From Acutalibacteraceae bacterium (lineage in GTDB: Bacteria; Bacillota; Clostridia; Oscillospirales; Acutalibacteraceae), in contig JAZQKN010000137.1 in the NCBI GenBank assembly GCA_045542175.1, positions 8,961 to 72,960 on the forward strand: a stretch of DNA of 64,000 nucleotides, in the 5' to 3' direction. Below, piece by piece: positions 27,457-64,000 of the stretch (the stretch's first letter is position 1; the number at the start of each line of letters is the position of its first letter). The position numbers were made by a program, and so were the translations under genes. A model generated the notes under the pieces. The model was not told where the DNA came from. It was given only the letters and a program-made list of their open reading frames with translations, and searched no databases.

Positions 27457-30400
27457 TTAACCTATAATCTGACCCTTTTCATTAAAGGTATAGGTATCTG
27501 CGATAAGCAGATTGTTTGTTGCGGTGATTTTAATTGTAGTGTTGACCGCAAGCTTGCCTTTATAGGTTGCATAGTAATAATAGCCGTCAACGTATACAAG
27601 ACCTTTTTCTACGCCCAAACCGTTTTCATAGTAATAAAGCTCACCGTCTTTTTCTACTATGCCGTTAAGCATCTTGCCGTCAGGTCCGAATTCATACTTA
27701 ACACCTGTAGGCAAATCACAGCTTGAAAGCGTTACCTTGATTGTCTTGTTTACGGCAATTTTGCCCTTATATGCAACGTAATAATAATCGTCGCCTATCT
27801 TGGTAAGACCCTTTTCAAGAGCCTGACCGTTTTCATAGTAATAAAGCTCGCCGTCTTTCTCTATTATACCGTTAAGCATTTTGCCGTTTGCATCAAATTC
27901 ATACTTAACGCCCGCGGGCAAGTCACAGTTTGTAAGAGTAACTTTCAGCGTCTTGCTTACCGCAATTTTGCCCTTGTAAGCGGCGTAATAGTAATCCTCG
28001 CCAACCTTTACAAGACCTTTTTCTACACCTATGCCGTTTTCATAGTAATAAAGCACTCCGTCTTTTTCTACTATGCCGTTAAGTGCTTTACCGTCCGCAC
28101 CGAATTCATAGGTTGCCTTGGGTAAATCGCAGTTGATTATTGAGGGTCTCAAAGACGTGTTTACAGCCAGTTTACCGTTATAGGCGGCGTAGTAATAATC
28201 ATTACCTATCTTGATAAGACCCTTTTCTACGCCCTTGCCGTTTTCGTAATAGTAAAGGATGCCGTCTTTTTCTATTATTCCGCTGATCATTTTACCTTCG
28301 GCATCAAATTCATAATGCTCTCCTGCGGGTAAGTCACAGCTTGTGACAGTTGCCTTTATCGATTTGCCGACAACAAGCTTGCCCTTATATGCAGCATAAT
28401 AATAGTCATCGCCTATCTTGATAAGGCCCTTTTCATCCGCAACGCCGTTTTCATAATAGTAAAGCTCACCGTCTTTTTCTATTATGCCGTCAAGCGCTTT
28501 GCCGTCTGCACCGAATTCATAGGTTGCCTTGGGTAAATCACAGTTGATTATTGAAGGTCTAAGCGATGTGTTTACCGCAAGCTTGCCCTTATAAGCAGCG
28601 TAGTAATAAGCACCGTCAACTTTAATAAGACCCTTTTCAACGCCCTTGCCTGTTTCATAATAGTAAAGGACGCCGTCTTTTTCTACAATGCCGTCAAGCA
28701 TCTTGCCGTCTGCACCGAATTCATATCTGTCAATCGGCAAATCACAGCTTGTCATAGGTATTTTAAGCTCTTTGTTTGTTACAAGCTTGCCCTTATAAGC
28801 TGCATAATAATAGTCGTTACCAACCTTGACAAGACCCTTTTCTACACCTACGCCTTTTTCGTAATAATAAAGTACACCGTCAAGCTCAACTATTTCACCG
28901 TTTGCTGATGAGCCTATCATCTTACCTTCGGCATCGAACGTGTAAGTACCCTTGGGTAAATCACAGTTGGTCGAAGCCGTAGTCAGCGTTGTGTTTGTTG
29001 CAAGCTTTCCGCCGTATGTAGCGTAGTAATAATCATCACCGTACTTGAACAGATGCTTCTCTGTTGCAATACCGTTTTCAATATAACGGTAATAGCCGTC
29101 CAGATAGTAAATTCCGTTAAGCACGCCTCTGCAAACACCGTCATCGCCAAAATCATACCAGGTTGTAGGCATTGCCGATGCGCTTACTGATCTGAGACCT
29201 TCATAGCGGTAACCGCCTCTGAAATAGTAAAGATTTCCGTCAATCTCGTACCAGCCTCTGAAATAATACGAAGGACCGTAGTAATAACGTGTACCTTCAA
29301 GTGTTTTTATCCATACGCCGTCGGAAACCTTGCCGGTTTCTTCAAAGTTAAAATAAACTTCTCCGACTCTGTAATAACCGCCCTTTGCGGCAAGGGTTGA
29401 TGAATGGAAATAATACCACTCGTCATTTATCATATGCCAGCCTGACATAAGCTCGCCAAGCTTTGAATAGCGGTAAACTCCGTTGGCCTCATCATAGAAA
29501 AGACCTGTAAACTTAGTCTGGCCGATATTGATTCCGTTTTCACCGAAATCATAATAGTAGCCGTCAATCAGGCAGATGCCTGTGTATTTCTGGCCGTCAA
29601 CGTAATACGCAAAACCGTTTTCTTCATTTACCCAGCCTTCCTTAACAGCCTTTGAAAGAATATAAGTATCTTCAAAGTAAGCATAGGTTGCGCCGAAATA
29701 ACCGCCCTTTTCATTAGGGTTATCGGGGTTAACAAAAGGAAGGATACCGTAGGCTTCCTGATTCTGGGTATTCTGTGCAAACGTATAAAGAGCATTTGCA
29801 CGCATATACATCTTGTAGCTTATATCACCCGCGTTAACAACTGTAAGTCTGTCATTGGGCCAATCTACACCTTGCTTGGGAATGAGCTTGATTCCCTTGA
29901 GAATGCAGAGCGGATTTGCCATATCGGGGTCAATCGCCTGAGTCTGGTCTTTCCAGTTAAGAGTGAGAGTAAGGGTATTGGTTGCTTCGTCAAACTCTGT
30001 ATTGGTAAGCACAAAATAATCGTTAACCAGGCTGATATTACTGTAATCAACCTCAAAATTGCTGTCAATGCGTACCGTTGCCTTAACTTCCGTAAGAACG
30101 CTCACTCTTTCTGCAAGCTGCATAAGGAATGACCACGCGGAAGCATTTTCAAGCTCTGCGCCCGGCAACATAGTCGTAAGGTCTGCAAGCTGCTCGGGAA
30201 TGGGAATCTGAGTCATATCGATTCCGAAGGTATACTCCGTAATCATTTCTTCGCTGTAATCAACAATCTCGTAGACGTATTCGTCCTCTGTTGTTGAATT
30301 GCTTACAACTCTGTTCCATGCCATTGTACGGTCGCCGCCAGTTGCGTTATCAAAATCAAATGAAACCTCATCCATTGTGTAAAGAGCAACGCTTATGGAA

Positions 30401-33400
30401 TCGCTTTCCGTACTGTCAGCGGCAAGAGAAGCCGTAACAATAACGTTCTTTACGCCCGAAGCTTCATTACCGATAAATCCGAAGCCTTCAACCACACCCG
30501 CTGAAGGTGTGCTGAGCGTAAATACAAGGTCTTCAGGAATTGCCTTGACAGGCTTATTCTCGTAAAGAGCCATAACGGGTAACTCTGCTTTCTGACCGTA
30601 GATGGCATTCATATTTGTTTTGCTGAAGTAAACTCTGTCCGGAACAACGATGTTAATTGTTTTTGTGCCGATAACCGTGTCACCGAGCATAAGATACACA
30701 TCAACCGAACCGTTTCTGAGCGCCGTAAGAACGCCGTCTTCTGTTACCGTAGCCCATTTATCATCCGAAACAGCCCAGCTTGTTCCTTCGGGAAGCTCTG
30801 CCGTATTACCTGTTGCGCTTACGCCCTTTGCGGTAAGCTGAACGGACGAGTTTTTGGTCATAAAGTCATATTCGCTCTCAATAATTGCGTGATCGAAAGC
30901 GGTTGAACTGGGAGCGGTTGAAACCATAATAAGCGACGTGCTTACTGAACGTGCCGCACCGTCCGAAGGCTTGTTGGAAACACTGAGTTTATCATCGCCT
31001 TCTTTTCTTGTAACGAGCGTTGTTGATCCGCCGCCATCAAGATTTATAGCCTGAACACAACCCGCTTCAAGCATAATATGAGCAATTTCATTATAAGTAC
31101 CGCCGCAGGAAACAGGTTCCTGTCTGCCGTCAAGTACCATAAACACAACCTTACCTGTCTGGGTAATGCCTACCGCCGTACGGCTTGCACGGTTTGTTGC
31201 ATAATCAGTGTTTGACGTTATAAGTACTTTTCCGTCTTTTACAAGCATTGAACCAAAGCCGCCGATAGCTTCTTTAAGCTCATCCTTATAATATTTGTTA
31301 TAATCTTGGGTTGTTCCGATTACAGCCTTGCCGTCCTTTGTGATTCCGAAGAATCCTGTTGAACCGATACCGTGATATTCAGTACCGTCCATAATAAGCA
31401 AGCCGCCGGGTTCACCCGTTTCCATATTGTATCCGCCGCCGTTAATGCCTACAATTACATTGTAATTCTCAACGTACAGATCGCTTTCCGGGTTGCCGTA
31501 TTTATTCTGTGCGGCATTAGACTGCTCAAGAACAGTCTGCATTCCCCAGCTTGTGGGATCGTTGTCCTTATAGTTGGCATAGACAAAAATATCATCTCTT
31601 GAGAGATCGGCGGTGGCAGTATAGTAAACCATTTGCTTGTTATCTGCCGTAGTTGCCTTTTTGCTTGTCTGAATTATACCGGGTGCAAGAGTTGAAGTTT
31701 CGGATTCAAACACCGTAAAATACGGATTTTCCGTATTTTCAACATAGTCACCGGCAAGCTCGCAGACATAATCCGCAAACGCATAGCAACAAGCTCTTCT
31801 TAATACAGAAAGGTCTTTTGTATTGAAAACCTTTGTTGCTTCAAGAGTTGTTATTACTCTGTTTCCTGTGTAAGCATTGTAGACAGCATCACGCACGTCA
31901 GCACGGATACTGATTCCGCCAAGTCTGTTTTTAAGGAAATAATCCGCTCTGCTTTCCATTGTGAGATTTTCTGTGAAATAGCCTGTGAAAATCTCAGTAA
32001 TCAAGCCTTCTTTGTATTCGGAATCAATGATAACGTCCATCAGATAGAGTGCATCAAGATCGCCGAACATATCCTGTTCGTTAAATCCGCCGACTTCTTC
32101 GGGATCATCCTGAAGGAGATAGTTTTTGCCGATTTCCTCAATCATTTCGTCGAGAGTACCCGATACTCCGCCGTAATCGGAAAACTCCATAAGGTCAACG
32201 AGGTCACCCGCCCAACCTGCAACGTCGGCGTGGTTGAGGCTTGTTTTATTGTGATACGTAATATCCATCGTTCCGAACATATGCCCGAAATCAACGGTAT
32301 CACCGTTGGGAAGAACAAAATTCTCAAGATCCTTGAGTGCAGTTACCCTGAGTGCTGCATCGGGACCTGCCATAGCATTATAATCTTCTTCAAATCTTGC
32401 AACGTATGCCGCAAAATCAGCATCCTCATAGCCCGCCATAATGCCCCACGAGCCTTCAGTATACTTATCTACACCCGTACGGATATATTTGATAACAAGC
32501 TCAACGGGATCTTTGCCGGGGAACTCCGCCGCATACATATTCGCTATTTCTTCAAGTGCGGCAAGGTTGATTATAAAGGTATCGTAATCATCAATGTTGG
32601 GATTCTCAAGAACGGGAATCTCAACGTATGTTGTGTGATCGCATCTGGAACATTTTTCATATGCTTCCCAGCCTACGCTTGTGTACGTGGGAGCCTTTGC
32701 CTCATAATATGTAAGGATATGTCCCTGTGTTTCAACAACCTGCTGAGCGATAATAACTTCACCGCAAACGCCGCAATGACTTCCCTGAGTTATACCGTTC
32801 TGTGTACAGGTTACGGGTATTGCAGCATCGATAACCTCTGTGTGTCCGAGTGCTTTGCCTTCGGTATATCCGCAGCAATTCAGACAAGTCGAGGGCTCTG
32901 TGCATGTTGCGTCAGACATATTATGTCCCGTTGCGGAAACTTCATTTGCAATATACTGATAACGACATCTTGAACAGGTATTTACCGTGCTTCCGTTTTC
33001 GGTACAGGTTGCATTTGTTGTTGCCGTTGTAAATCTGTGACCGAGCGAAGCCGTGAGTTCTTGTCCGCATTCGGTACAGCTTTGTCCTTTGGTGCAAGTT
33101 GCGCGCGTTCCGGGTGTATGACCCTTTGCCTGCGCAATAACTTCGTTACACTCCGTACAGGTCTGCGCCTGAGTACAGGTTGCATTCTCGCCGGGTGTAT
33201 GCGGTTTAACAGGAGCGAGCTCTAAGTCACATACCGTACAGGTCTGCGCACTCTTACAGGTTGCCTCTGCGCCTGCCGTATGTCCTGTTTCGGGCACTTC
33301 GGAATCGGTATAGCTGTTTCCGCATTCCGTACAGGTGTGAGTTGTATATCCTATATTAACGCAGGTAGGTAAAGTTACGGTTATTCTGTAACTGTGACCC

Positions 33401-36400
33401 TTTGCAACGGCGATTACCTCGTTGCATTCTGTACAAACCTGAGTTGCCGTACAGGTAACGTCACCGTTGGGTGTATGTCCTTTTGCGGGAATAATCTGAT
33501 TTCCTTCTTCATAACCGCAAAGAACACAATGGCTGCCCGAGCTGTATCCGTCTTCCGTACAGGTAGGCTCAATGGCATTGCTGTGCACCATATTGTGTCC
33601 TAATGCGGGAAGAAGCTCATCACCGCATACAAGGCAAATCTGCGGCTGTGTACAGGTCGGTTTTTCACCGGGGGTGTGACCGTTTTCGGAGGCAAGCACC
33701 TCGCCGCAAACTACGCAAGTCTGAGGCTGAGTACAGGTAGCCTGTGCTCCGGGTGTATGACCGAGTGCGGGTTTCTCACTGTCCGTATAAGAATCACCGC
33801 AGTTCAAACAGGTGTGCTTTGTATAGCCCGCATTCGTGCAATCGGGTTCAAAAATCTCATCTGAATAATTGTGGCCTTTAGCTTCTTCAAGCACATCTCC
33901 GCAAACAGTACAAGTTTGCGCATCTTCGCAAGTTGCCGCTGCTCCCGCAGTATGTCCGAGCGCGGATACTTCATCCGTTACAAGGACTTCTCCGCATCTC
34001 AAGCAAGTGCTTGTTGTATATCCGCCTTCAGTACAGGTCGGATAGGTAATAACAACCGAGTAACTGTGACCTTTTGCTTCTTCAAGCACTTTTCCGCAAA
34101 CAGTACAAGTCTGTGACTGTGTACAAGTAGCATCACCCGAAAGGCTGTGACCTGTTGCAGAAACGGTTTCTGTGTATCCGTATCCGCAGGGGCAAGTGTA
34201 TTTGTTATATCCTGAGTTTTCGCAATCCGGCTGAACAGATTCGACAAGTGTGTAAATATGATTTGTATGTTCTGTCCATACGCCATTGATATAATAGTTT
34301 GATGAATTTGCTCCGGAGGGCTGCATATATTTTCCGTCAGCATTCTTGAGCTTTGCGGGGGTAATGGGAATTTCCGTATATCCGCTTTTTTGAACAAGCT
34401 GATGAGTTTTTGTCTGGCTGCCTTTTTTCAAAAGAACAACGCCTGAATCCGAACTGCTGATATCAGCACCGCTTGCCGTTGTGTAAATATATCCGGCTGA
34501 GGCATCAAGAACTCCGTCAACCTGAATTCTTGCATCCTTAAGATCCGCATCGGTACGGCTATACTTTCTGCCGGGTGCATATTGAAGCGGAATAAACGTT
34601 TTATTGGTAGCTCCGCAGAAATTGCCCCATTCGGAACTGTCGTAAATATAAACGTTGGTTCCTGAACCGAGAACGCATCTCGCATCCTTGCCGATAATAA
34701 TTTCGGCACCGGGCAACATTGAAATATTCTGCGCAAGAGTGATTGTTCCGCTGTTTACCTTAACAGTTATATTATTGTTTATGGGAAGTACGTAATCCTT
34801 TGAGTTGATGGTTTTGGCAAGGAGTCCGCTTCCGAATTTAAGCTCTATGGGACTTATTGAAATTTCACCGTTGACTTCAACAACAAGTCGGTCGGTTGCA
34901 GGGTCATAATATTTCGTTACGGAGCCTGAGGTAAGGTTAAACATCGCATCTTTTTTTGCAATGAACGAAACCGCAGAACCAAACTCCATTGATGAAATAT
35001 AAACAGAAGTGTAACTGCTTTCAACCGAACCCGCCTCAAGAGTCAGAGGCACTTCAATATTCTGAATATAATACTGTGAAAGCGGGAATACACCGTTTTC
35101 CATATCCGTTGTCTGGGTGCCGCCCCTGAAATCCATAATCTGGAAATATTCATAAACGTTGGCACCGCTTTTTGCAACAACGCTTCCCGAACCGATAATA
35201 AATCCGTAAGCATAAAGATTACCGCCGTTATTAACGGTAATATTACTGCCGTTTTCCATTTTTATAAATCCGCACGGTCCGTTAGGTGATCCGCCGTCGG
35301 TTTTGCCGCCCTTTGCGGTAAAATGCTTTGCGGGAATGGAAAGAGCACCGTTAACAATGATATTGGCACCCGGTGCCATAGTCAGAGTTCTGTAGGCTGT
35401 AGGCTTAATTCTTGTCTCGGATTCAACTTCAGGGGTGGTTGTGTAAACGGTATTGTTGGCATCAAAAGGAATAAGCAACGTAATGCCTGAAGGAATAGTA
35501 TAATTACCTGCCGGCAATTTACCGTCGTTCGCCAAAACAACCGTATTTCTTCCCGTTGAAGAAGCATAAGCAACAGCATTGTTAAGATTATTGAACAAAT
35601 AACTGTTGTTGCCCGCAGTGAAATATGCCTCGGAATTTGCTCCTGCAAAAACCGCCTTAACGGTCATATCGTTTACGGGAGTAATCTTATATGTTGTGCT
35701 TGTAGAATAAACAAAATTGGTTTCGGGGTTTATCCAGCCAAGGAATTTTCCGCCGTTTGCTTCAGTCGCGGTAAGAGTTGCACCTTTGCTGAGCGTAATA
35801 ACTCTGGAGCTTCCCGAAGAAACTTTTTCTCCGTCAACGCTAATGCTTCCGTAAGAAGAATCATAATTAAACGTTACGTTTGATTCCTCAGCAGCTTCAA
35901 CAAGGCTGATATTGCTGAGAACAAGCTTTGCTTCCTGATATCCTGTTTTTGACTTGAGTGAAAGAGTTACGTTTCCGTCGGGATAAAGAAGCACTGAATA
36001 TTTGCCCGATGATGAGCCCTCACTGAAAGATTCATAGTTAGAAGCATTGTAATCAAAGCTGAGTGTTGAAATCTTATCGGTATTGTTGTAAATATCGATT
36101 GTATTTACCTTTGATGTCAGCATTCCGCCTTTGACGGTAATTGTCACCGTGTTTCCGGAAACTGATGCTGTATCAGCACTGTCTGTAATCAGCACCTTAC
36201 CGCCGAGAACCGTAACGTTGCTCTGGGGTGACGTTGATAAATTGGAAACGGAACCGTCAAGATAAGAATAAAAAACATCCAGAGCCTTTGCGGTTTTTGT
36301 TCCGAGCAGTTTTTTCTTATCGGTGTTTCCGAGTCTGTTTATCATCGGATCAAGAGACTCAATATCATCCTTTGCGTATTGAGCAGTCTCATTATCCATT

Positions 36401-36651
36401 CCGAGAGCAACATCGGCAATATCACGTTCCGTATAGCTTCCGGCACCAAGATAACGAATCAGCACGGCATTCATTTTAAGAAACGCGTTCCAGAGCGGGT
36501 TATCATTATTAACATCAAAATATGATCCCGTATCCAACAGCCCGAAAGCATTATGATGATCCGCTGCAAATGTCGGTACCGATAATGCCGACATAAATAC
36601 GGTAAGCACCATAAACAATGCCAATATTCTTTTGCCTGTTTGCTTAATCAT
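27457..36651 (-). CDS. Giant (about 3060 aa) secreted surface protein: beta-rich N-terminus, Cys/His repeats, GWAGDL domain, NAGPA-like phosphodiester glycosidase, Ig-like domain, C-terminal cell-wall-binding repeats
   Basis: Signal peptide (KRILALFMVLTVFMSALSVPTFA); GINGG, RTAVG...DGRQ...AINLDGGGST; tandem GH..TCT..C..CG repeats; tandem YYY-rich repeats; ATGA overlap with the licD stop. Confidence 0.85.
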   Translation of the reverse strand: MIKQTGKRILALFMVLTVFMSALSVPTFAADHHNAFGLLDTGSYFDVNNDNPLWNAFLKMNAVLIRYLGAGSYTERDIADVALGMDNETAQYAKDDIESLDPMINRLGNTDKKKLLGTKTAKALDVFYSYLDGSVSNLSTSPQSNVTVLGGKVLITDSADTASVSGNTVTITVKGGMLTSKVNTIDIYNNTDKISTLSFDYNASNYESFSEGSSSGKYSVLLYPDGNVTLSLKSKTGYQEAKLVLSNISLVEAAEESNVTFNYDSSYGSISVDGEKVSSGSSRVITLSKGATLTATEANGGKFLGWINPETNFVYSTSTTYKITPVNDMTVKAVFAGANSEAYFTAGNNSYLFNNLNNAVAYASSTGRNTVVLANDGKLPAGNYTIPSGITLLIPFDANNTVYTTTPEVESETRIKPTAYRTLTMAPGANIIVNGALSIPAKHFTAKGGKTDGGSPNGPCGFIKMENGSNITVNNGGNLYAYGFIIGSGSVVAKSGANVYEYFQIMDFRGGTQTTDMENGVFPLSQYYIQNIEVPLTLEAGSVESSYTSVYISSMEFGSAVSFIAKKDAMFNLTSGSVTKYYDPATDRLVVEVNGEISISPIELKFGSGLLAKTINSKDYVLPINNNITVKVNSGTITLAQNISMLPGAEIIIGKDARCVLGSGTNVYIYDSSEWGNFCGATNKTFIPLQYAPGRKYSRTDADLKDARIQVDGVLDASAGYIYTTASGADISSSDSGVVLLKKGSQTKTHQLVQKSGYTEIPITPAKLKNADGKYMQPSGANSSNYYINGVWTEHTNHIYTLVESVQPDCENSGYNKYTCPCGYGYTETVSATGHSLSGDATCTQSQTCTVCGKVLEEAKGHSYSVVITYPTCTEGGYTTSTCLRCGEVLVTDEVSALGHTAGAAATCEDAQTCTVCGDVLEEAKGHNYSDEIFEPDCTNAGYTKHTCLNCGDSYTDSEKPALGHTPGAQATCTQPQTCVVCGEVLASENGHTPGEKPTCTQPQICLVCGDELLPALGHNMVHSNAIEPTCTEDGYSSGSHCVLCGYEEGNQIIPAKGHTPNGDVTCTATQVCTECNEVIAVAKGHSYRITVTLPTCVNIGYTTHTCTECGNSYTDSEVPETGHTAGAEATCKSAQTCTVCDLELAPVKPHTPGENATCTQAQTCTECNEVIAQAKGHTPGTRATCTKGQSCTECGQELTASLGHRFTTATTNATCTENGSTVNTCSRCRYQYIANEVSATGHNMSDATCTEPSTCLNCCGYTEGKALGHTEVIDAAIPVTCTQNGITQGSHCGVCGEVIIAQQVVETQGHILTYYEAKAPTYTSVGWEAYEKCSRCDHTTYVEIPVLENPNIDDYDTFIINLAALEEIANMYAAEFPGKDPVELVIKYIRTGVDKYTEGSWGIMAGYEDADFAAYVARFEEDYNAMAGPDAALRVTALKDLENFVLPNGDTVDFGHMFGTMDITYHNKTSLNHADVAGWAGDLVDLMEFSDYGGVSGTLDEMIEEIGKNYLLQDDPEEVGGFNEQDMFGDLDALYLMDVIIDSEYKEGLITEIFTGYFTENLTMESRADYFLKNRLGGISIRADVRDAVYNAYTGNRVITTLEATKVFNTKDLSVLRRACCYAFADYVCELAGDYVENTENPYFTVFESETSTLAPGIIQTSKKATTADNKQMVYYTATADLSRDDIFVYANYKDNDPTSWGMQTVLEQSNAAQNKYGNPESDLYVENYNVIVGINGGGYNMETGEPGGLLIMDGTEYHGIGSTGFFGITKDGKAVIGTTQDYNKYYKDELKEAIGGFGSMLVKDGKVLITSNTDYATNRASRTAVGITQTGKVVFMVLDGRQEPVSCGGTYNEIAHIMLEAGCVQAINLDGGGSTTLVTRKEGDDKLSVSNKPSDGAARSVSTSLIMVSTAPSSTAFDHAIIESEYDFMTKNSSVQLTAKGVSATGNTAELPEGTSWAVSDDKWATVTEDGVLTALRNGSVDVYLMLGDTVIGTKTINIVVPDRVYFSKTNMNAIYGQKAELPVMALYENKPVKAIPEDLVFTLSTPSAGVVEGFGFIGNEASGVKNVIVTASLAADSTESDSISVALYTMDEVSFDFDNATGGDRTMAWNRVVSNSTTEDEYVYEIVDYSEEMITEYTFGIDMTQIPIPEQLADLTTMLPGAELENASAWSFLMQLAERVSVLTEVKATVRIDSNFEVDYSNISLVNDYFVLTNTEFDEATNTLTLTLNWKDQTQAIDPDMANPLCILKGIKLIPKQGVDWPNDRLTVVNAGDISYKMYMRANALYTFAQNTQNQEAYGILPFVNPDNPNEKGGYFGATYAYFEDTYILSKAVKEGWVNEENGFAYYVDGQKYTGICLIDGYYYDFGENGINIGQTKFTGLFYDEANGVYRYSKLGELMSGWHMINDEWYYFHSSTLAAKGGYYRVGEVYFNFEETGKVSDGVWIKTLEGTRYYYGPSYYFRGWYEIDGNLYYFRGGYRYEGLRSVSASAMPTTWYDFGDDGVCRGVLNGIYYLDGYYRYIENGIATEKHLFKYGDDYYYATYGGKLATNTTLTTASTNCDLPKGTYTFDAEGKMIGSSANGEIVELDGVLYYYEKGVGVEKGLVKVGNDYYYAAYKGKLVTNKELKIPMTSCDLPIDRYEFGADGKMLDGIVEKDGVLYYYETGKGVEKGLIKVDGAYYYAAYKGKLAVNTSLRPSIINCDLPKATYEFGADGKALDGIIEKDGELYYYENGVADEKGLIKIGDDYYYAAYKGKLVVGKSIKATVTSCDLPAGEHYEFDAEGKMISGIIEKDGILYYYENGKGVEKGLIKIGNDYYYAAYNGKLAVNTSLRPSIINCDLPKATYEFGADGKALNGIVEKDGVLYYYENGIGVEKGLVKVGEDYYYAAYKGKIAVSKTLKVTLTNCDLPAGVKYEFDANGKMLNGIIEKDGELYYYENGQALEKGLTKIGDDYYYVAYKGKIAVNKTIKVTLSSCDLPTGVKYEFGPDGKMLNGIVEKDGELYYYENGLGVEKGLVYVDGYYYYATYKGKLAVNTTIKITATNNLLIADTYTFNEKGQIIG
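27460..29100 (-). repeat. In-frame tandem repeats of about 200 bp (about 66 aa) encoding aromatic cell-wall-binding-like modules
   Basis: Recurrent GIIEKDGELYYYENG...EKGLIKIGDDYYYAAYKGKL...CDLP...YEFGADGK units, about 8 copies. Confidence 0.85.
32600..34270 (-). repeat. Cys/His-rich peptide repeats within the giant gene
   Basis: About 17-18 units of GH-x5-8-TC-x4-8-CxxCG. Confidence 0.8.
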
Positions 36652-37475
36652 AGCCATCTCCTTTCGCCTGTTTTTATATATTCTTTATATGAAGTGTTTA
36701 CGTCACAAATATTTGCTTTGTGATGTGATTTCCGGTCTTTTTCAGAAGGATCTTCACGCCAATTGCCGTATTTAAAAGTAAGATATTCGTCATAGCGTTC
36801 GGGCACGGTAACTTCAACACCTTCAAATCTCGCTTTAAATCCGTCACCGTACCATTCGCGAAGAATTTTTCCTTTGCCCTGACGGTCACCGTAATTACAA
36901 AGATAAAGTGACGTTTTATCAGTAGCCGAAATCATTCTTTCAATTTTTGCTATTGCCTTATGCGTACTTTTGTTGAACCCAAAGAATCTCATAACCAGAT
37001 TTCTTATACGGATTCTGGCTTTGCTTTGATCGTCAAGAGAACTGAATGCCCACCAAAAAAGAAGCTTGGTTTTAATTTTGGTTATTTTTGAGGGTTCACG
37101 GTAACTGTCAATGGGAAAAATATCCATATAAATTCCGTGATTCATCTCAAGATGGGAAACAGATTTTTCAATAAAAGTTGTTTCGGTGTTTCTTATTTTT
37201 GAATAAATAAACGGAAACCGACTGTCGGTCATATAGTTCTGAACAAAAAGATTATCGGGTAAAAGCTGTTGCGCCTTCCGAAGAAAAATCACATAATCTT
37301 CTCTCGGCATCGCAACGTCAAGGTCATCATCCCAGGGAATGAAGCCCTCATATTTTATTGCACCGAGAGCACTGCCGTTAACAAGATAATATTTTAAATT
37401 AAGTTTGTTGCAGACCCTGACAAACTGTCTGAAGGATTCCAGCACCGTTTTTTGAATATCATTCACCTTGTTCAA
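36648..37475 (-). CDS. licD: LicD family phosphotransferase
   Basis: GSALGAIKYEGFIPWDDDLDVAMPREDY, GIYMDIFPID, YL..KYGNW. Confidence 0.9.
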   Translation of the reverse strand: MNKVNDIQKTVLESFRQFVRVCNKLNLKYYLVNGSALGAIKYEGFIPWDDDLDVAMPREDYVIFLRKAQQLLPDNLFVQNYMTDSRFPFIYSKIRNTETTFIEKSVSHLEMNHGIYMDIFPIDSYREPSKITKIKTKLLFWWAFSSLDDQSKARIRIRNLVMRFFGFNKSTHKAIAKIERMISATDKTSLYLCNYGDRQGKGKILREWYGDGFKARFEGVEVTVPERYDEYLTFKYGNWREDPSEKDRKSHHKANICDVNTSYKEYIKTGERRWL

Positions 37476-57148: not shown

Positions 57149-57397
57149 ATGAATGTAGATACATTAAGAAAAAACCTGTATAAGCTCTCGGTTATCTGCT
57201 TCGTCATCGCTCTTGTAGTGTTCATTATAAATTATTTTGTGTTCCACTACGTAACCGACGACGGCATAACTCTTGTAAAACAGGCTGAGGCGGGCAAACC
57301 GTTTGTTACAAATCTTATCGGTATGCTTGGTGCGGATATGGTATTCGCTTCAATCGTTTCAGCGCTTTGTGCAAAAATTCTTTGCAGCAAAAAATAA
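57149..57397 (+). CDS. Small two-TM membrane protein
   Basis: AAGGAG RBS; two hydrophobic helices; followed by a terminator at 57414-57444. Confidence 0.75.
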   Translation: MNVDTLRKNLYKLSVICFVIALVVFIINYFVFHYVTDDGITLVKQAEAGKPFVTNLIGMLGADMVFASIVSALCAKILCSKK

Positions 57398-57586
57398 CCG
57401 TTTTTATAATCCCAAAGACCTCACCTTGTGTGGGGTCTTTTTTTGACGGATACGTCAGATTTTACCGTATTGACCCGCAATGTGTTTCCCCAGACCTGAC
57501 GTGCGGGTTTTGTGATAATACAACAAAAATCCGTAGTTGTTGCAAAAATCTGACGAATGTGATAGAATTTGGCAGAGGTGATTATT

Positions 57587-58975
57587 TTGTTTTCAGAAAT
57601 ACGAATTACCGAGAATTTTTATATCCCCTATGGCAATATGTGCTTTGTTTATGAAAAGTCTGAAAATGAAAAACTTCATAACCTTTGCGTTGATTTAGAG
57701 CAGACACTGAAGATGGATTTTGAAAGCTTTGCTCACAAAATCCGCAAAGTTCTTGAAGAGTTTGTTTTGCACGAAGAAGCTAAACGAAGAATTATTGAAT
57801 CTGAAATGAAATTCAACGTGCAAACAACCCGCGAAAGGATTACCGGCGAAATAGTCCGTGGCAAAAGTTCATACGGAGATTTGCTGGTAGATTTATGTTC
57901 AGCCTCCGAAAACCGGGAATTATTTAAAAAGATAATAACCAAACACTTCAATCTTTCTGACGGTATCAGTCAGGACGTATACATAAGCCGCTTAAAAGAA
58001 TACGTTATCAGCATTTTGCGATTTGCAAGCAAAAATTCTCATTCGGGAGAAAAATCGCAGGAGCTGGAACCCGACGACGGAGTTTGCAGAAAATATATGC
58101 GGATGCTGTATGATTTGTTAAGCGCTTATTACGGTTACACCGTTAAATATGACGGCGGCAAACTCCCGCTTGGCGATTATTATCCGGTTTCAAAAGCTCT
58201 TTGCAGAGAAAATGGGATTCATCTTCCCGAAGGTAAACATTTCTACGTACAGCAAGGCGAAAAAAGCGTTAAATACTATATTTTTTCTTCTGCCGACAAA
58301 GCAATGAAAGAAACCCAGCAAAGAGACATAGAAACAATTCAGAAATTATGGACGGATAATTTTGATTTTCCGCAGAACGTTATACCTCAGTCAGGCTTTA
58401 TTTCAAACAAAAACGGTGAAAACTTCAGATTCAGAACTTATGCTCTGCCGTCTTTTCCGCAAAGCATAACAGATGAATACATATCCTCGCTTTCTGACGA
58501 TGAAAAAATGCAGATTGTTAAAGGAATTGTCAAAGGTGTTGCTTCAATGCATAATGCAGAGCCGCCGTTTTATCACAGATGTATTTCTCCGTCTTCGTTT
58601 CTTGTTTGCAAAATCAAAAACGGTCTCAAGCCTTTCCTCATTAATTTTGACTGCGTAAAGGATACTGACAGCGATGCGGCATTTACCGTTCTTTATGCTG
58701 TAGGCGAGAAAATGGAAAGTTCCGAAAACCCCGAGCTTCTTTTTGCTCCCGAATTGCTCGATGATGAGATTATCGACAGCAATGACGTAAACTGGGCAAA
58801 AGCTGATATTTATGCCCTCGGAAGAACTCTTCTTAAGATTTTAACCAATTCATATTCCGTTCCCGAAGAAAAACCTGAATGCATAAGTTCAGAGAAATTC
58901 GATGCGCTGGTCCTTATGTGTGAAGAAAGTCCCGGAAGCCGCCCTGATTTGTCAGATATCATTAATATTTTTTAA
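57587..58975 (+). CDS. DUF4145/HEPN-like N-terminal domain fused to a degenerate Ser/Thr kinase-like domain
   Basis: KIRKVLEE and RFASKNSH motifs; kinase C-lobe HRCISP..F, INFD, FAPE, KADIYALG, P.SRP; TTG start after GAGGTG. Confidence 0.7.
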   Translation: MFSEIRITENFYIPYGNMCFVYEKSENEKLHNLCVDLEQTLKMDFESFAHKIRKVLEEFVLHEEAKRRIIESEMKFNVQTTRERITGEIVRGKSSYGDLLVDLCSASENRELFKKIITKHFNLSDGISQDVYISRLKEYVISILRFASKNSHSGEKSQELEPDDGVCRKYMRMLYDLLSAYYGYTVKYDGGKLPLGDYYPVSKALCRENGIHLPEGKHFYVQQGEKSVKYYIFSSADKAMKETQQRDIETIQKLWTDNFDFPQNVIPQSGFISNKNGENFRFRTYALPSFPQSITDEYISSLSDDEKMQIVKGIVKGVASMHNAEPPFYHRCISPSSFLVCKIKNGLKPFLINFDCVKDTDSDAAFTVLYAVGEKMESSENPELLFAPELLDDEIIDSNDVNWAKADIYALGRTLLKILTNSYSVPEEKPECISSEKFDALVLMCEESPGSRPDLSDIINIF

Positions 58976-58980
58976 AAATA

Positions 58981-59016
58981 AAAACAGACCGATGTTACCT
59001 TTCATCGGTCTGTTTT
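58981..59016. terminator. Bidirectional terminator between the pseudokinase gene and the small-ORF cluster
   Basis: AAAACAGACCGATG / CATCGGTCTGTTTT. Confidence 0.8.
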
Positions 59017-59162
59017 CGTTTTGGTCTCCTGTTGATTTTTATCAGGGTTATGCGCGAGCCGCATTCGGTGCAGCGGGGCAAGTCAAGTGGAATTGCCGTT
59101 CCGCATCTGGGGCAGAACACATTGCCTGATGTTCGGGTTGCGCCTGTCATTATCAATGACAT
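58995..59162 (-). CDS. Small zinc-ribbon protein, 55 aa (not in ORF track)
   Basis: Manual translation MSLIMTGATRTSGNVFCPRCGTAIPLDLPRCTECGSRITLIKINRRPKRKQTDER; AAAGGAG RBS; true start may be the TTG at 59156. Confidence 0.65.
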   Translation of the reverse strand: MSLIMTGATRTSGNVFCPRCGTAIPLDLPRCTECGSRITLIKINRRPKRKQTDER

Positions 59163-59172
59163 TTCTCCTTTC

Positions 59173-59313
59173 TTATCGGCGTGATTTGATTGCGTCTGCT
59201 ACGGGCTGTGCTGCGGCGATTGCTGTTCCGATGGGAATCAGCACTTTGGCGATTGTAACCGCTGTTGTTGCTGCTTTTGCGGCTGCTGTGAGCGTGAAAA
59301 ATGAAACCAGCAT
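59173..59313 (-). CDS. Small Ala-rich hydrophobic peptide, 46 aa (not in ORF track)
   Basis: MLVSFFTLTAAAKAATTAVTIAKVLIPIGTAIAAAQPVADAIKSRR; AAAGGAGG RBS 7 nt upstream. Confidence 0.7.
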   Translation of the reverse strand: MLVSFFTLTAAAKAATTAVTIAKVLIPIGTAIAAAQPVADAIKSRR

Positions 59314-59355
59314 TCTTCTTCCTCCTTTCTTTATCTGTATGATATTAAAGGCTTA

Positions 59356-59421
59356 TCAGCCTTTGATGGCGATGATTACTTCGCCTGCTGCGACTAATAT
59401 CGCACCGATAAGTGCCAGCAT
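59356..59421 (-). CDS. Very small hydrophobic peptide, 21 aa (not in ORF track)
   Basis: MLALIGAILVAAGEVIIAIKG with tandem TGA-TAA stops; AAAGGAGGTG RBS. Confidence 0.65.
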   Translation of the reverse strand: MLALIGAILVAAGEVIIAIKG

Positions 59422-59454
59422 CAGAGCACCTCCTTTCTTCTTTATTTTCTGCTT

Positions 59455-59613
59455 TTATCCGCGCGACGAACCTGCGTCACTGCGCTTTTTGCGCCAGGTG
59501 CCGTCCTGATTGCGGCTGCGGTTCTGTCCCGCCGTGGGTCCTGTTTTAACTATGGGGCCGTGGGTGTCTCTGGGGCTTGCGGATGCTTTTGCGAATGATG
59601 ATAAAATGCTCAT
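59455..59613 (-). CDS. Small basic protein, 52 aa (not in ORF track)
   Basis: MSILSSFAKASASPRDTHGPIVKTGPTAGQNRSRNQDGTWRKKRSDAGSSRG; GAAAGGA RBS; promoter upstream. Confidence 0.65.
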   Translation of the reverse strand: MSILSSFAKASASPRDTHGPIVKTGPTAGQNRSRNQDGTWRKKRSDAGSSRG

Positions 59614-59661
59614 CTGAATCTTTCCTTTCGTTTTTTGAGTTTGTTTTTTGGGAACATCTGC

Positions 59662-59703
59662 ATTGTAGCAGACGCATAATCGGGTTTTGTAAAAACGGAT
59701 TAC
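59662..59703 (-). promoter_or_regulatory. Conserved box plus extended -10 promoter (copy 1)
   Basis: Minus strand GTAATCCGTTTTTACAAA, then TGcTACAAT. Confidence 0.65.
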
Positions 59704-59840
59704 GGCTTTTCGGTGTATTTGATTATTACACGCGGCAGATGTTTTTCCGCATTTACTTTTTTACAATGGTCGAACACCGATTTATGAGGATAAGGAAATG
59801 AAGGCTTGTTTTGTTTATCCGTTTGTCTGAACACTGTCAT
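59700..59840 (-). CDS. Small basic protein, 44-46 aa (not in ORF track)
   Basis: (MT)VFRQTDKQNKPSFPYPHKSVFDHCKKVNAEKHLPRVIIKYTEKP; AGGAGGTG RBS suits the GTG at 59834. Confidence 0.55.
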   Translation of the reverse strand: MTVFRQTDKQNKPSFPYPHKSVFDHCKKVNAEKHLPRVIIKYTEKP

Positions 59841-59857
59841 CACCTCCTGACAACACC

Positions 59858-59898
59858 AGTATAACAGAGCAAAAACACGGTTTGTAAAAACGGATTAC
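59858..59898 (-). promoter_or_regulatory. Conserved box plus extended -10 promoter (copy 2)
   Basis: Minus strand GTAATCCGTTTTTACAAA (identical 18-mer), then TGtTATACT. Confidence 0.65.
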
Positions 59899-59902
59899 AA
59901 AG

Positions 59903-59928
59903 AAAAAACCGCCCTTCGGGGCGGTTTT
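59903..59928 (-). terminator. Intrinsic terminator of the kinase-NB-ARC-TPR gene
   Basis: CCGCCC-CGAA-GGGCGG followed by T6 on the minus strand. Confidence 0.85.
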
Positions 59929-59931
59929 GAG

Positions 59932-62900
59932 CTAATTGCTGTTCGCGGTTATTTCATCAATAATCGACTGCGTTTTTTGAGTCCTGTAATCATTTTTTCC
60001 AAAAATTTCGATTTGAATTTCAAGAGCTTTTGTAAGGTTAACCTCTGCTTCAGACCGCAGACCTTTTTCAATATTCAGCCGTCCTAACCAATAATACGAG
60101 TCAGCCGTTTCACTGTGCTTTTGTCCCAGCATATTTTCTCTGATACTAAGAGATTTTAAGATTAAAGGTTCTGCTTTTTCTGTTAAATGTTGTTCTACAT
60201 AAAGTGCTCCCAAAGTGCAATAACAACGCGCCAGATCTGACTGTTCTATTTTCAACTTCTCTCTTATTTCTATTGATTTTAAAAAATATTTTTCAGCATT
60301 CGGAATGTTTTTTGTTTTATCATAAAACCCACCTAAATTATGATAACAATTCGCAACCACGATATGATCCTCACCATATAATGACAGCCTTATATCAAGG
60401 GCTTGGTTTAGCTCTTCTTCAGCACAGTCGTACTGTTCTTCTCTTATGTTGACTAGCGCCAAAGCATTGTATGATTGAGCCACCGCTTCGTTTTTCAGAC
60501 CAAAAAGCATTTTTCTTATTTCGAGCGAGCGTAAATACATTTTCTTTGCATTTGTATAATCTTCAAGAAATAAGAAAAGGTTACCTTTTGAATGATAGGT
60601 TGACGCAACATCAGACGAACATTCTCCAAACAGTTCGATTTGAATTTTCAAGCTTTTATCATAATGATTCTTTGCTTCCTCAAAAAAATCTGTATCAAAA
60701 CAAACGTCTCCCAAGTGACAATAAACCGTTGCAATCAAACTGTGTGAAGTGTTGTAATGGTTTTCAAGTAATTCCAATGCATACTTAAATTCTTTTTTAG
60801 CTTCAGAGTAGTTTCCTTTCGTATGATATATCACTCCGAGATTATCGTGAATTCCGGCAATTTCTTTGATGAAAGTTTTTATGTAATTCTGTCCATAAGC
60901 TTTTTCATAAGTTTCAAGGGCTTGTTTTGTAAATAATTCAGCGTTATCAACATCATCTTTTAACAAATACACTGCACCCAGATTGCTGTATGAGTCAGCA
61001 ATAAGGCAACCGGGACAGTCTGCATTATTCTTTCCGATTTTGATACATTCACAAAGGCATCTGATATCCAGTTCAAAATATCCGAACTCCGTTCCAACCG
61101 GATCCATACCTAAAAACCTTGCAACAGAAGTTGTCTGCAAACCGCTTCTTAAAACTTTTACGGATACAGAATTCTTTAAATTTACATAATAATACCGTTC
61201 AGCGAACTCCAAAGAACCGAAATGACTTTTTTCGCTTAAAAAAGCAAAAAAATTATTCAAAAACAAAGAAATATCAGCAGCCTTGTCTTTCACCAACCCA
61301 AACATAATATCAGACACAACAGGATGCAATGATATGAAATCCTTTTCTTCATCCCATCTTATCCAGCCCTCGCTTACAAGAGAATTGACTGTTTCGTAAT
61401 CTTCAAGTCCACACCAATCTCTGAACTGCTCTGCTGAAATTCCCGAATGGGGAATAAGTGAAAGATTTCCGAGAATATTAATCGCATTTTCATCAAGGTC
61501 CGAAATATCAAAAAGTGCACGGATATGGTCATAAGCACTTTGTCTTGATAAAACGCTGTCTTTGCCCGCTTCCACCTTTTCTTTTCCGCTGTCAGCCAAG
61601 CCTCCGTTGCTGAGCACATCAAACATCTTCTGAGGTGTTACCCTGCCCGACTTCATCTGCTTTGCAAGGAGTTCAACCGTCATAGTATGACCGTCAACAA
61701 GGTCAATAATCAAGCTGACTATCCTCTTGCTTTCCTCGTCGATTGCTTTTGTATAATAATTATTGAATATTGAGTTGATATCGCTGCGCACAGCAAGAGC
61801 GCCGATTTCAATCTGAGGATAATTGTAATCAGCAAAGTTATTTCTTGTTGTTATTAATTTTTTGCAACCGAGAGATAAAACGTCGTTCAGATGCGGATCT
61901 TCAACCGTATCAAAATTATCGATTATAAGCAGTGTGCGTTCATTGCAAAGCTCCTTTAATTTGCGAAGCTTTCTGTCATAATACTCATTTGGCTGCTCAC
62001 CTTGGAACATTTCTATGTTAACAACAGAAACGTATTTGTCATCGGTAATCAGCATCATAATATCGTTTATATAAGGGGCAAATATTATTGCATCATAACC
62101 GTCTTTGAATTTAACGGCATAATTTTTGACGAGTTCACTTTTTCCTATGCCGCCCATTCCGCTGACAAAAAGAACGTCATTCTCTTTTAATTTGTTATGT
62201 ATTTCCTCTGTCTCTTTGTCGCGGCCGACAAAAAAGCTTTGCTGAGCAGGAAGCGTTGAAACAATTCTGGGCTCGTGGGGATTCGCCAGAGGTATCATTT
62301 CTTCAAGAGCTTCAAGCATTTCGTCTGCAGAAGCATATCTTTTTGAAACAACGCCGCAAATCGTTTTGCTGAAAAATTCAGAAAGCGCAGGGAATATTTT
62401 CGGATCAACGTCTTTACAGATTTCAGAATCAAAGTCATATTCATATTTCGCAAAGCTTCTGCGCTCATCGGCGGAAGAATGTCTGCCGAAAAGCTGATAA
62501 AACACCATTTCGCCTATTGAAAACAAGTCAGTAGCTTCACATATTTTCCCTCTTCTTCCCGGCAGCAAAAGCTCGGGTGCAGCCCATACCTCTGTATACG
62601 AAACCGCTCTGCCGGAAACAGCCTCACCCTTGGTGAGAACGCTGTCAAAGTCAAAGAATATAACAAACTCCGCTGACTCCGGAAGAGCAAAAATATTATT
62701 CGGTTTTAAATCCAGATGAAGATATCCGTTACCGTGATAATGCTTTACCGTCTGAGTGATTGTTCTGATTCTTCGCAAAAGGTCATAGAGACTTGTTTCC
62801 TGTATTTTATCATACGTTGTACCGTTAAAACACGCCATATCAATGTATTCGGTACCGTTGCCTTTGTAAATTCCCTGAACGTTGCCTGTCGTATTTTTGG

Positions 62901-63207
62901 TTTCGTCGATTTTTCTTATGCCAAGCTGCTTCTTATATCCGTTTTCAAAACGCAGTAACCCCGAGACAAAAGCCTCCATTTCTTCTTCGCTGTCCGCGAA
63001 AAGAAATCCTGATTCATCCCTGCCAAGATCAAGCTTTTGAGGGTTATATTCCTTAAGAAGATGCTCGGTACAAATTCCGTTTTTGTCCGTGAATTCGGCA
63101 AAATATACCGCACACGAAGAACCGTATCCGATAACCGATTTGATTTTGAAAACGCCTTCTATACCGTCAAGTGAAAATTCATATTCCGGCTGTAAATATC
63201 TTTTCAT
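59932..63207 (-). CDS. Ser/Thr kinase - NB-ARC (STAND NTPase) - TPR protein (bacterial NLR-like)
   Basis: GYGSSCAVY, LLKE, HLDLKPNN, DFD, APE; FVGR, GMGGIGKS, LLIIDNFD, LITTR, GHT, LHP; about 8 TPR repeats of the type G..H..VA..Y.NLG; ATG after AAGGAG. Confidence 0.9.
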   Translation of the reverse strand: MKRYLQPEYEFSLDGIEGVFKIKSVIGYGSSCAVYFAEFTDKNGICTEHLLKEYNPQKLDLGRDESGFLFADSEEEMEAFVSGLLRFENGYKKQLGIRKIDETKNTTGNVQGIYKGNGTEYIDMACFNGTTYDKIQETSLYDLLRRIRTITQTVKHYHGNGYLHLDLKPNNIFALPESAEFVIFFDFDSVLTKGEAVSGRAVSYTEVWAAPELLLPGRRGKICEATDLFSIGEMVFYQLFGRHSSADERRSFAKYEYDFDSEICKDVDPKIFPALSEFFSKTICGVVSKRYASADEMLEALEEMIPLANPHEPRIVSTLPAQQSFFVGRDKETEEIHNKLKENDVLFVSGMGGIGKSELVKNYAVKFKDGYDAIIFAPYINDIMMLITDDKYVSVVNIEMFQGEQPNEYYDRKLRKLKELCNERTLLIIDNFDTVEDPHLNDVLSLGCKKLITTRNNFADYNYPQIEIGALAVRSDINSIFNNYYTKAIDEESKRIVSLIIDLVDGHTMTVELLAKQMKSGRVTPQKMFDVLSNGGLADSGKEKVEAGKDSVLSRQSAYDHIRALFDISDLDENAINILGNLSLIPHSGISAEQFRDWCGLEDYETVNSLVSEGWIRWDEEKDFISLHPVVSDIMFGLVKDKAADISLFLNNFFAFLSEKSHFGSLEFAERYYYVNLKNSVSVKVLRSGLQTTSVARFLGMDPVGTEFGYFELDIRCLCECIKIGKNNADCPGCLIADSYSNLGAVYLLKDDVDNAELFTKQALETYEKAYGQNYIKTFIKEIAGIHDNLGVIYHTKGNYSEAKKEFKYALELLENHYNTSHSLIATVYCHLGDVCFDTDFFEEAKNHYDKSLKIQIELFGECSSDVASTYHSKGNLFLFLEDYTNAKKMYLRSLEIRKMLFGLKNEAVAQSYNALALVNIREEQYDCAEEELNQALDIRLSLYGEDHIVVANCYHNLGGFYDKTKNIPNAEKYFLKSIEIREKLKIEQSDLARCYCTLGALYVEQHLTEKAEPLILKSLSIRENMLGQKHSETADSYYWLGRLNIEKGLRSEAEVNLTKALEIQIEIFGKNDYRTQKTQSIIDEITANSN

Positions 63208-63227
63208 ATATTTTTTCTCCTTGCGAT

Positions 63228-63268
63228 ATAGTATCATTCAAAACAAAAGTATTTGTAAAAACCGATTA
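63228..63268 (-). promoter_or_regulatory. Conserved box plus extended -10 promoter (copy 3)
   Basis: Minus strand TAATCGGTTTTTACAAA (16/17 match), then TGaTACTAT. Confidence 0.6.
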
Positions 63269-64000
63269 TTCAAACGAACTGAGATAGTATTTTTCAATAA
63301 GGGCACGAAGCTCATCTACAGGATTCGGCGCGCACGCACAATATCCTATCATCCAGTCAAACGGATTGCGCCAATACAGTCCTACATAACCGCATTCGGC
63401 AAGAACAGAATCCATTTCATCGTAAAACTCAAAAAACAGCTCTTGTCCGCCTTCAATCCCGTTCAGTTTCGCTTCTGTAAAAAAGCTGTAAAAATTAAGA
63501 ATTACAAGTGCTTTTTTAATTACCTCATACGAAGCTTTGCCTTTCAATATATTCTCAATTTGTTGTCTTTGCGGGAAGTTGCGTTTGATAAGTTTCGGAA
63601 AACCCGATTTACTGATGCTCGAACTGTAAACACGTATACCTTGTCCGCTTTTTTTATCAACACCCTCGGTTCCTCTTGCGGAATAAGAATAAATCGCATC
63701 AAGCAATGCATCAACGGTTCGGATTTCTTTTCTGCTGTCAGGGCAACCGTTTTCCCCGTTTGCCAGAACCATACATTTATTTATCAGGACTTTTATTTTT
63801 TCTGTTGCCGTTTTGTTGTTAATCTTAAATCCCGAACTGTTTTCCGTTATGTAATTTATCAACTCTTCTTCGGTGTCTTTTAAGTAAATCTCTTTTCCGA
63901 TATTTTCTGTAGCGTCTTCTGCTTCGGAATTGTTTATATGTTGCTTTTTTTCGATAATATCTATAATTCTTAGAGCGTCCGAATATGTTCTGCCTGATTT
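63266..64000 (-). CDS. Hypothetical protein, 5' truncated; possibly helical and DNA-binding
   Basis: Frame is open without stops from 64000 to the TAA at 63266; C-terminal L..CGY..LY..NPFD..I motif. Confidence 0.7.
   Translation of the reverse strand, partial: KSGRTYSDALRIIDIIEKKQHINNSEAEDATENIGKEIYLKDTEEELINYITENSSGFKINNKTATEKIKVLINKCMVLANGENGCPDSRKEIRTVDALLDAIYSYSARGTEGVDKKSGQGIRVYSSSISKSGFPKLIKRNFPQRQQIENILKGKASYEVIKKALVILNFYSFFTEAKLNGIEGGQELFFEFYDEMDSVLAECGYVGLYWRNPFDWMIGYCACAPNPVDELRALIEKYYLSSFE

Follow-up and report, generated by a model that had tools for sequence, protein, structure and literature searches.

How might a large receptor that bears a protein kinase at its N-terminus act together with the regulator-like gene before it and the string of very small genes behind it? 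This question is raised by a 64,000-nucleotide (nt) stretch of DNA, called the window below, from an Acutalibacteraceae bacterium (assembly GCA_045542175.1, contig JAZQKN010000137.1; in our labels G000:C137:8961-72960, where Gnnn stands for genomes, G000 being the source genome, and Lnnn for collected loci). Coordinates are window positions unless a locus label precedes them. One end of the window holds an island with, on the minus strand and in this order, a helix-turn-helix (HTH) family gene, a kinase-STAND-TPR gene, a hairpin, five small open reading frames (ORFs) 3′ of the kinase gene (s1-s5) and a bidirectional hairpin, towards which a gene for a 462-residue protein converges (Table 1). 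The answer that we favour, with slightly better than even confidence, is that activation of the kinase by the sensor leads to phosphorylation of the HTH protein, which then activates promoters that share a sequence box and so induces the microprotein cassette, probably in defence. The whole island is also found in G024 (78% nucleotide identity), L005 and L010; the close relatives named here and below are Acutalibacteraceae metagenome-assembled genomes. An earlier note, made from the letters of this DNA, had seen in it a linked sense-phosphorylate-respond module. The genes are indeed linked, the module is undescribed, and its association with homologous NLR-like genes recurs in relatives. Its core, however, is the pair of HTH and kinase genes, and the microproteins and the convergent gene are accessory, because many loci with HTH and kinase-STAND genes carry other cassettes and the microproteins also accompany other STAND genes.

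The receptor gene is what the earlier note took it to be. Pfam detects Pkinase (6e-13), NB-ARC (2e-6) and TPR_12 (5e-48) in its product; the longest frame opens at 63237, ends with the stop at 59932 and would give 1101 residues. The beta-3 Lys, catalytic Asp, Asn and Mg-binding Asp (K52, D166, N171 and D186) are invariant in 15/15 homologues, and by its sequence the N-terminal domain is a Hanks-type Ser/Thr kinase with intact catalytic residues. The STAND part retains an intact Walker A motif, GMGGIGKS, and a Walker B motif, LLIIDN. The kinase and STAND parts of G000 and L005 share 83% identity and their C-terminal TPR sensors only 30%, so the sensor has been exchanged while the remainder was kept, as one might expect if selection on a recognition module keeps changing. 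Such swapping agrees with the NLR-like sensor that had been proposed. The sensors of G000 and L006 are 65% identical.

The gene before the receptor, previously described as hypothetical, is real and no bystander: it is a conserved partner of the kinase, and it runs on beyond the window. After removal of three duplicates (L002, L003 and L014) 38 loci with this gene were gathered, two of which end at the gene. A Ser/Thr kinase gene adjoins it in 33 of the remaining 36 (27 recognised by motif, six more by Pfam), L015 included, where one gene separates the two. In one group the kinase partner carries a P-loop/STAND domain; loci of the other group have a plain kinase gene upstream, and in several of them a PP2C phosphatase gene (confirmed in L030 and L037) comes before it. 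Such PP2C-kinase-HTH operons form a classic phosphorylation triad, which favours a kinase acting on the HTH protein. The family is large (1,655 clusters at 50% identity) and rare, with members in 6/401 genomes of the order, 4/400 of the class and 15/132 of the genus, and its close form in 3/132 genomes of the genus. The viral contigs searched contained no relatives of this protein or of the convergent gene product.

No Pfam, PHROGs or PADLOC model matched the HTH-family protein, and Foldseek against the PDB gave no match at E<=0.001. Its structural model (pLDDT 87.5) is nearly all helical. Residues 40-128 of the model align weakly to XRE-type HTH chains, which dominate the top 50 rows (Z 3.8-5.8), and the nearest named Atlas clusters are HTH_26/HTH_3 (0.88 and below). 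We predict from the model a DNA-binding protein with an XRE-type HTH at about residues 40-128. An internal duplication (tandem HTH), suspected by eye, was dropped when hhalign gave a probability of only 2.2. Judging by conservation among distant members, Thr12 (94/96 aligned) and Thr175 (132/140) are candidate phospho-sites.

Other loci of the family have features of their own. In L027-L037, L021 and L041, which represent the second subfamily, the PP2C gene shares a single run with a Ser/Thr kinase gene, whose product often bears BspA-type LRR or Ig repeats, and with the HTH-family gene; a second kinase gene sometimes faces the run. This appears to be an unnamed phosphorylation signalling operon itself. 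The source genome has a second, distant member on G000:C167 (L025:2-2767), followed by a kinase gene with an AAA/P-loop domain that is cut at the contig end; the strict box is not present at this locus. On pCY186 of Butyrivibrio proteoclasticus (L043:11740-17464) a terminator-like hairpin and then small hydrophobic proteins come after the HTH and kinase-P-loop genes. This strain and Ruminococcus albus 7 (L042) are cultured strains with HTH-kinase loci.

The shared box proposed before three promoters proved to be present as three 17-nt copies, at 59686, 59881 and 63252, and its exact pattern has no further occurrence in the 2.56-Mb genome; the convergent gene has a canonical sigma-70-type promoter instead. 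For the comparison of relatives, loci were picked by position and the 85 nt 5′ of the kinase start were scanned for TTTT[AG]CA separated by 19 or 20 nt from a downstream TAnnnT. The pattern was found in 12/20 loci, as against a mean of 0.02 and a maximum of 3 in 20,000 shuffles; in the source genome 4/1,683 ORFs carry it, this kinase gene being one of them. The R. albus locus has a relaxed form. Spacing is 19-20 nt in 27 of 28 listed sites, the non-kinase ones having been chosen partly by score, and a TG extension occurs in 20; the length of the spacer is fixed and its sequence variable. The box is directional and mostly non-palindromic, box 3 lying in an imperfect palindrome, and it is retained where HTH proteins share 31-47% identity. 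It resembles a -35 hexamer set too far upstream. Since it ends 19-20 nt before the -10 element, 2-3 nt beyond the normal -35 position, these promoters should be weak unaided, and the fixed phase with a free spacer would suit an activator in contact with RNA polymerase more than a repressor. A box match in an unrelated phage contig was regarded as chance. The divergent HTH-kinase-STAND locus L020 has a different repeated motif, AAAACCAGA, before and after the kinase gene (L020:13650-13740 and 10300-10480), which hints that the box changes along with the HTH protein.

All five small ORFs are real genes under purifying selection, as the earlier note had supposed. Each has a ribosome-binding site, the frames are kept in G024, L005 and L010, and dN/dS is 0.03-0.42 in 26 of 27 pairwise comparisons, the other being saturated (s4 of L010 was left out). 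Identity between relatives is 76-95% for s2-s5, and s1 is the least conserved of the five. The s2 family comprises 260 homologues and has 18 invariant columns among 41 sequences. An Atlas search with s2 returned unnamed clusters only (0.84 and below), and PHROGs has no family for s1, s2 or s4 and two weak zinc-ribbon matches for s5. s2 alone was found on six plasmid records, phage G and four viral contigs, and in 0/400 other genomes of the order. The plasmids come from Staphylococcus, Arthrobacter, Clostridium and Psychrobacter, and gp196 of Bacillus phage G (L047:2941-3111) matches s2 at 73% over 33 residues. A secreted bacteriocin reading of the peptides was rejected, the island having no exporter or leader peptidase.

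Wherever s2 was examined in clostridial genomes or metagenomes (7/7 loci), a STAND gene of one of three unrelated architectures lies within about 5 kb. Two genomes of the genus have s2 with s3-/s4-like peptides and neither kinase nor box (shuffle tests 0-2/1,000). In G001 (L064:2690-8846) the peptides have an XRE gene on one side and, on the other, a WYL-like gene with an NB-ARC/NACHT gene; in G726 (L065:557-8619) an XRE gene flanks them on one side and an nSTAND5 gene with a CARF gene on the other. The intergenic stretch of G001 has its own inverted motif, GGTACAA / TTGTACC, 5′ of the cassette. A wider linkage is suggested indirectly by contigs of equal length: s2 and HTH homologues have this in common in five cases, one with neighbouring locus tags (IKU07_01750 and IKU07_01785), and HTH homologues and those of the convergent gene product in four. 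L007, L015, L016, L017 and L024 have the box again, in front of different cassettes. It precedes an NYN nuclease gene and a Gly/Ala-rich peptide in L007 and small ORFs in L016; in G589, of a different genus, boxes stand before three hydrophobic peptides, s2 and two Cys-rich peptides. The gene between the HTH and kinase genes of L015 (L015:1244-2683), also behind a box-type promoter, is an inserted primase-helicase gene with D5_N and DUF5906.

The convergent gene had been assigned DUF4145/HEPN-like and degenerate kinase domains; the kinase part was recovered, and a DUF4145/HEPN-like domain is probable. Residues 192-462 have a kinase fold (Z 15.5, root-mean-square deviation (rmsd) 3.9, 223 aligned), the Asp of HRD and that at the DFG position are each replaced in 47/47 homologues, and the product is a dead kinase. 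A profile comparison of the N-terminal domain with six DUF4145 domains gave a probability of 79.8 and E 1.5e-5 (reversed control 0.14), while Pfam alone matches DUF4145 in just 3/47 members (best E 0.031). The toxic RNase once suspected here fares badly. His152 of the HEPN-like motif is invariant, but the Arg position five residues before it holds Ala or Gly in 46/47 members, and only 22/47 have an Arg seven residues before it; because the motif Arg (Rx4H; Rx4-6H) is absent, such an activity is unlikely. The pseudokinase gene is under purifying selection (dN/dS 0.07-0.09). It is present in five loci (G000, L005, L006, L010 and L024), and the remaining collected loci, several with more than 4 kb downstream, gave no profile match. 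Among other genomes of the family it occurs in 1/300, in another family in 0/25, and the plasmids searched have none. A more distant group at about 37% identity includes a Lachnospiraceae protein, and the pseudokinase may occur outside this system. It is accessory; our guess is a damper or decoy role. One contig of a single run, X4, omits 344 nt within the gene (58245-58590).

How could these parts work together? In STAND receptors ligand binding drives oligomerisation. A foreign or stress molecule bound by the TPR sensor might thus cause the receptor to oligomerise and switch on its kinase, which would phosphorylate the neighbouring HTH protein, perhaps at Thr12 or Thr175; the HTH protein would then bind the box as an activator. 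The copy before the kinase gene would provide positive feedback. The output would be the cassette, here two hydrophobic peptides, a basic peptide and zinc ribbons and elsewhere an NYN nuclease, with growth arrest or membrane damage as its most plausible effect in defence. The pseudokinase, expressed from its own promoter, could be an optional damper or decoy. The bolder generalisation, that this is a bacterial NLR, a pattern-recognition receptor, that signals rather than kills directly, with a kinase that phosphorylates a dedicated transcription factor of an unnamed family of more than 1,000 members and induces interchangeable microprotein effectors through a promoter class of its own, the pseudokinase modulating, which would amount to a receptor-kinase-transcription factor immune cascade in gut Clostridia, is tentative, and we would sooner doubt it than assert it.

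Several observations weigh against the favoured answer. The HTH assignment is weak, its best Z of 5.8 (rmsd 3.0, 78 aligned) standing below the tool threshold of 8, with no Pfam hit. The proportion of 33/36 overstates independence, since about 11 of the 33 kinase-adjacent loci, all in the second group, are one related group from the same genus. In three loci the HTH gene has no adjacent kinase, and one of them, L019, retains the box. The box pattern was derived from the same loci on which it was counted, its 12 positive loci include four close relatives, and 8/20 kinase-STAND loci, the most divergent ones, lack the strict box. No STAND or HTH-family gene was seen in the eight plasmid and phage stretches with s2 that were fetched. 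The box of L015 precedes a D5-type primase-helicase and no obvious defence gene. Finally, the island in G000 is flanked by a metallo-beta-lactamase-fold gene, a hydrolase gene and a HipA-like gene and lies in no defence island, so that its flanks speak but weakly for defence.

XRE-type HTH domains are mostly repressors. The sign of the regulation could then be the opposite, with the HTH protein acting as a repressor or antitoxin on a box over the -35 region and released by kinase activity, in the logic of CapK-CapS or HipBA, and the kinase itself possibly toxic. The top structural rows include C-proteins, CI, HipB and CapH, but also the activators ComR, Rgg and PlcR. The extended -10 found at most sites can work without a -35 element and box 3 lies within a palindrome, yet a repressor site needs no fixed phase, and neither the near-constant spacing nor the direction of a mostly non-palindromic box would be called for. 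A precedent exists in the phosphorylation of the repressor CapS by CapK, as given in the consulted sections of PMC13373217. We consider this arrangement unlikely, the most credible of the alternatives all the same.

Alternatively, the microproteins might be ligands, inhibitors or feedback tuners of STAND receptors, that is, peptide signals and not downstream effectors. The constant company of STAND genes at the clostridial s2 loci speaks for such a role, and the s2 homologues of phages could be decoys. However, s2-s5 stay conserved while the TPR sensor is swapped, a poor fit to a cognate ligand-sensor pair, many kinase-STAND loci have other cassettes, and the island has no peptide exporter or processing peptidase; we regard this role as improbable. 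Still less credible to us is that the box is only a promoter style of local origin, copied inside a mobile element with the genes as loosely linked cargo, and that the kinase is a direct, Avs-like toxic effector. STAND receptors are, according to the relevant parts of PMC13581612, normally encoded by one gene and equipped with an enzymatic effector at the N-terminus, and the island is mobile. Against such cargo stand the retention of the box between remote HTH proteins and before unrelated cassettes, a spacer fixed in length though unconserved in sequence, and an HTH-kinase adjacency that spans two kinase types.

Read from its sequence context, the island is patchy and mobile. In L005 it has a tRNA-Cys gene on one side and on the other a 44-nt duplicate of the end of that gene, with integrase remnants, as in an attachment duplication; locus L039 is found among conjugation-type genes, as read from the sequence. 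The R. albus plasmid copy adjoins a toxin-antitoxin pair, a BrxL fragment and ThiF/JAB/SUa-2TM genes. These neighbours of the R. albus copy and the NYN gene of L007 are context of a defence type, as are the WYL or CARF genes near s2 with other STAND genes, and a defence role is probable on the ground of such context. Just past the window, an HTH_17 plus HipA-like kinase gene lies upstream of the island (L001:11744-12994), and an HTH plus Fic gene stands on the other side of the island of G024.

Table 1. Features of the island and its surroundings (window positions)
Feature	Position	Strand	Remarks
HTH-family gene, 3′ part in window	63266..64000	-	388 aa; extends 435 nt beyond the window, to G000:C137:73395, window position 64435
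Box 1 and extended -10	63229..63268	-	box 63252-63268 overlaps HTH stop codon; TG-n-TACTAT 20 nt downstream; predicted promoter of kinase gene
Kinase-STAND-TPR gene	59932..63207	-	1091 aa from the likely start with ribosome-binding site
Terminator-like hairpin after kinase gene	59905..59928	-	
Box 2 and extended -10	59859..59897	-	box 59881-59897; TG-n-TATACT 19 nt downstream; predicted promoter of s1
s1	59700..59840	-	46-aa basic peptide; stop overlaps box 3
Box 3 and extended -10	59663..59702	-	box 59686-59702; TG-n-TACAAT 20 nt downstream; predicted promoter of s2-s5
s2	59455..59613	-	52-aa basic microprotein; unnamed, highly conserved family
s3	59356..59421	-	21-aa hydrophobic peptide with a single predicted membrane helix (19 residues with a mean hydropathy of 2.57)
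s4	59173..59313	-	46-aa Ala-rich hydrophobic peptide
s5	58995..59162	-	55-aa zinc-ribbon peptide with basic tail; Pfam Zn_Ribbon_1 3.8e-6
Bidirectional terminator-like hairpin at the cassette/pseudokinase boundary	58980..59017	both	
Pseudokinase gene	57587..58975	+	462 aa; DUF4145/HEPN-like domain and pseudokinase
Sigma-70-type promoter-like site of pseudokinase gene	57540..57568	+	canonical; 17-nt spacer, TG; without box

Contigs from three runs diverge from the window sequence at 57354-57397, which may mark the left edge of a variable region. Parts of the island are covered by contigs from two metatranscriptome runs, one contig crossing an intergenic stretch; contigs cannot show transcription. 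Elsewhere in the window, a 3066-aa ORF occupies 27457-36657 on the minus strand.

What would follow if the favoured answer is true? Bacterial NLR-like receptors that have been characterised work through an effector domain of their own; a transcriptional output that can be induced would mean another kind of wiring, nearer to eukaryotic immune signalling. The nearby kinases, the two candidate phospho-sites and the defined DNA box give a first handle on a large unnamed HTH family, and the box is a means of finding output genes, including very small conserved proteins that annotation misses.

The impression that the combination has no name was borne out, as no PADLOC, Pfam or NCBIfam model matches the system and the literature searched gave no description of it. 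PADLOC 2.0.0, whose library predates Avs7-21, matched no Avs model to the receptor and gave generic kinase-domain and TPR models only among the best 25 of 28 matches. The main text of PMC13581612 has no relevant passage on a kinase and seven of its supplements gave no hit; three clade-table supplements lie outside this scope and may list this STAND clade. Other kinase-containing systems are described in the consulted parts of PMC12839542, PMC10542128 and PMC7159879. The FxSxx-COOH system TPR protein (NCBIfam NF040586) is likewise a STAND-TPR protein near small peptides, but the receptor matches it with 90 bits against a cut-off of 300, s1-s5 have no FxSxx C-terminus and the island has no radical SAM enzyme.

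Three other known systems are close. By its sequence features the receptor has the effector-STAND-repeat sensor architecture of the Avs/NLR-like type, with intact Walker motifs. It shares with Avs and bacterial NLR-like receptors the N-terminal enzyme-STAND-TPR layout, the exchangeable sensor and the mobile, patchy distribution (PMC13581612 and bioRxiv 2022.07.19.500537, in the sections consulted). Known Avs members act through their own effector domain, as far as the consulted part of PMC13581612 describes them, whereas the island receptor has a kinase domain plus a dedicated neighbouring regulator and promoter class. The CapK-CapS pair of PMC13373217 is also a kinase and substrate that govern transcription of adjacent variable operons. 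Its kinase, however, is of anti-sigma type, activated by single-stranded DNA, and its repressor STAS-like, while the island has a Hanks-type kinase-STAND-TPR protein, of Pkinase type, and an XRE-like partner whose model is nearly all helical. AfsK-AfsR-AfsS of Streptomyces, according to the relevant passages of PMC10936776, has the same ingredients: a Ser/Thr kinase, a STAND NOD with TPR, a DNA-binding activator, a box over a poor -35 and a downstream target gene. There AfsR joins the STAND-TPR part to the SARP DNA-binding domain, with the kinase as a protein apart; in the island the STAND-TPR part is joined to the kinase, and the XRE-like DNA-binder stands apart. The afs box consists of two 11-bp direct repeats, whereas the island box is a single directional site, and phosphorylation is reported in the same passages to have little effect on AfsR activation. 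With its kinase N-terminus the receptor is not an AfsR-type large SARP, and the NCBIfam AfsR match covers the TPR part only (33 bits against a cut-off of 1430). By analogy, then, the module would follow the logic of AfsK-AfsR-AfsS with its domains reshuffled, and likewise that of CapK-CapS, as a member of neither, built on an Avs architecture without a named family.

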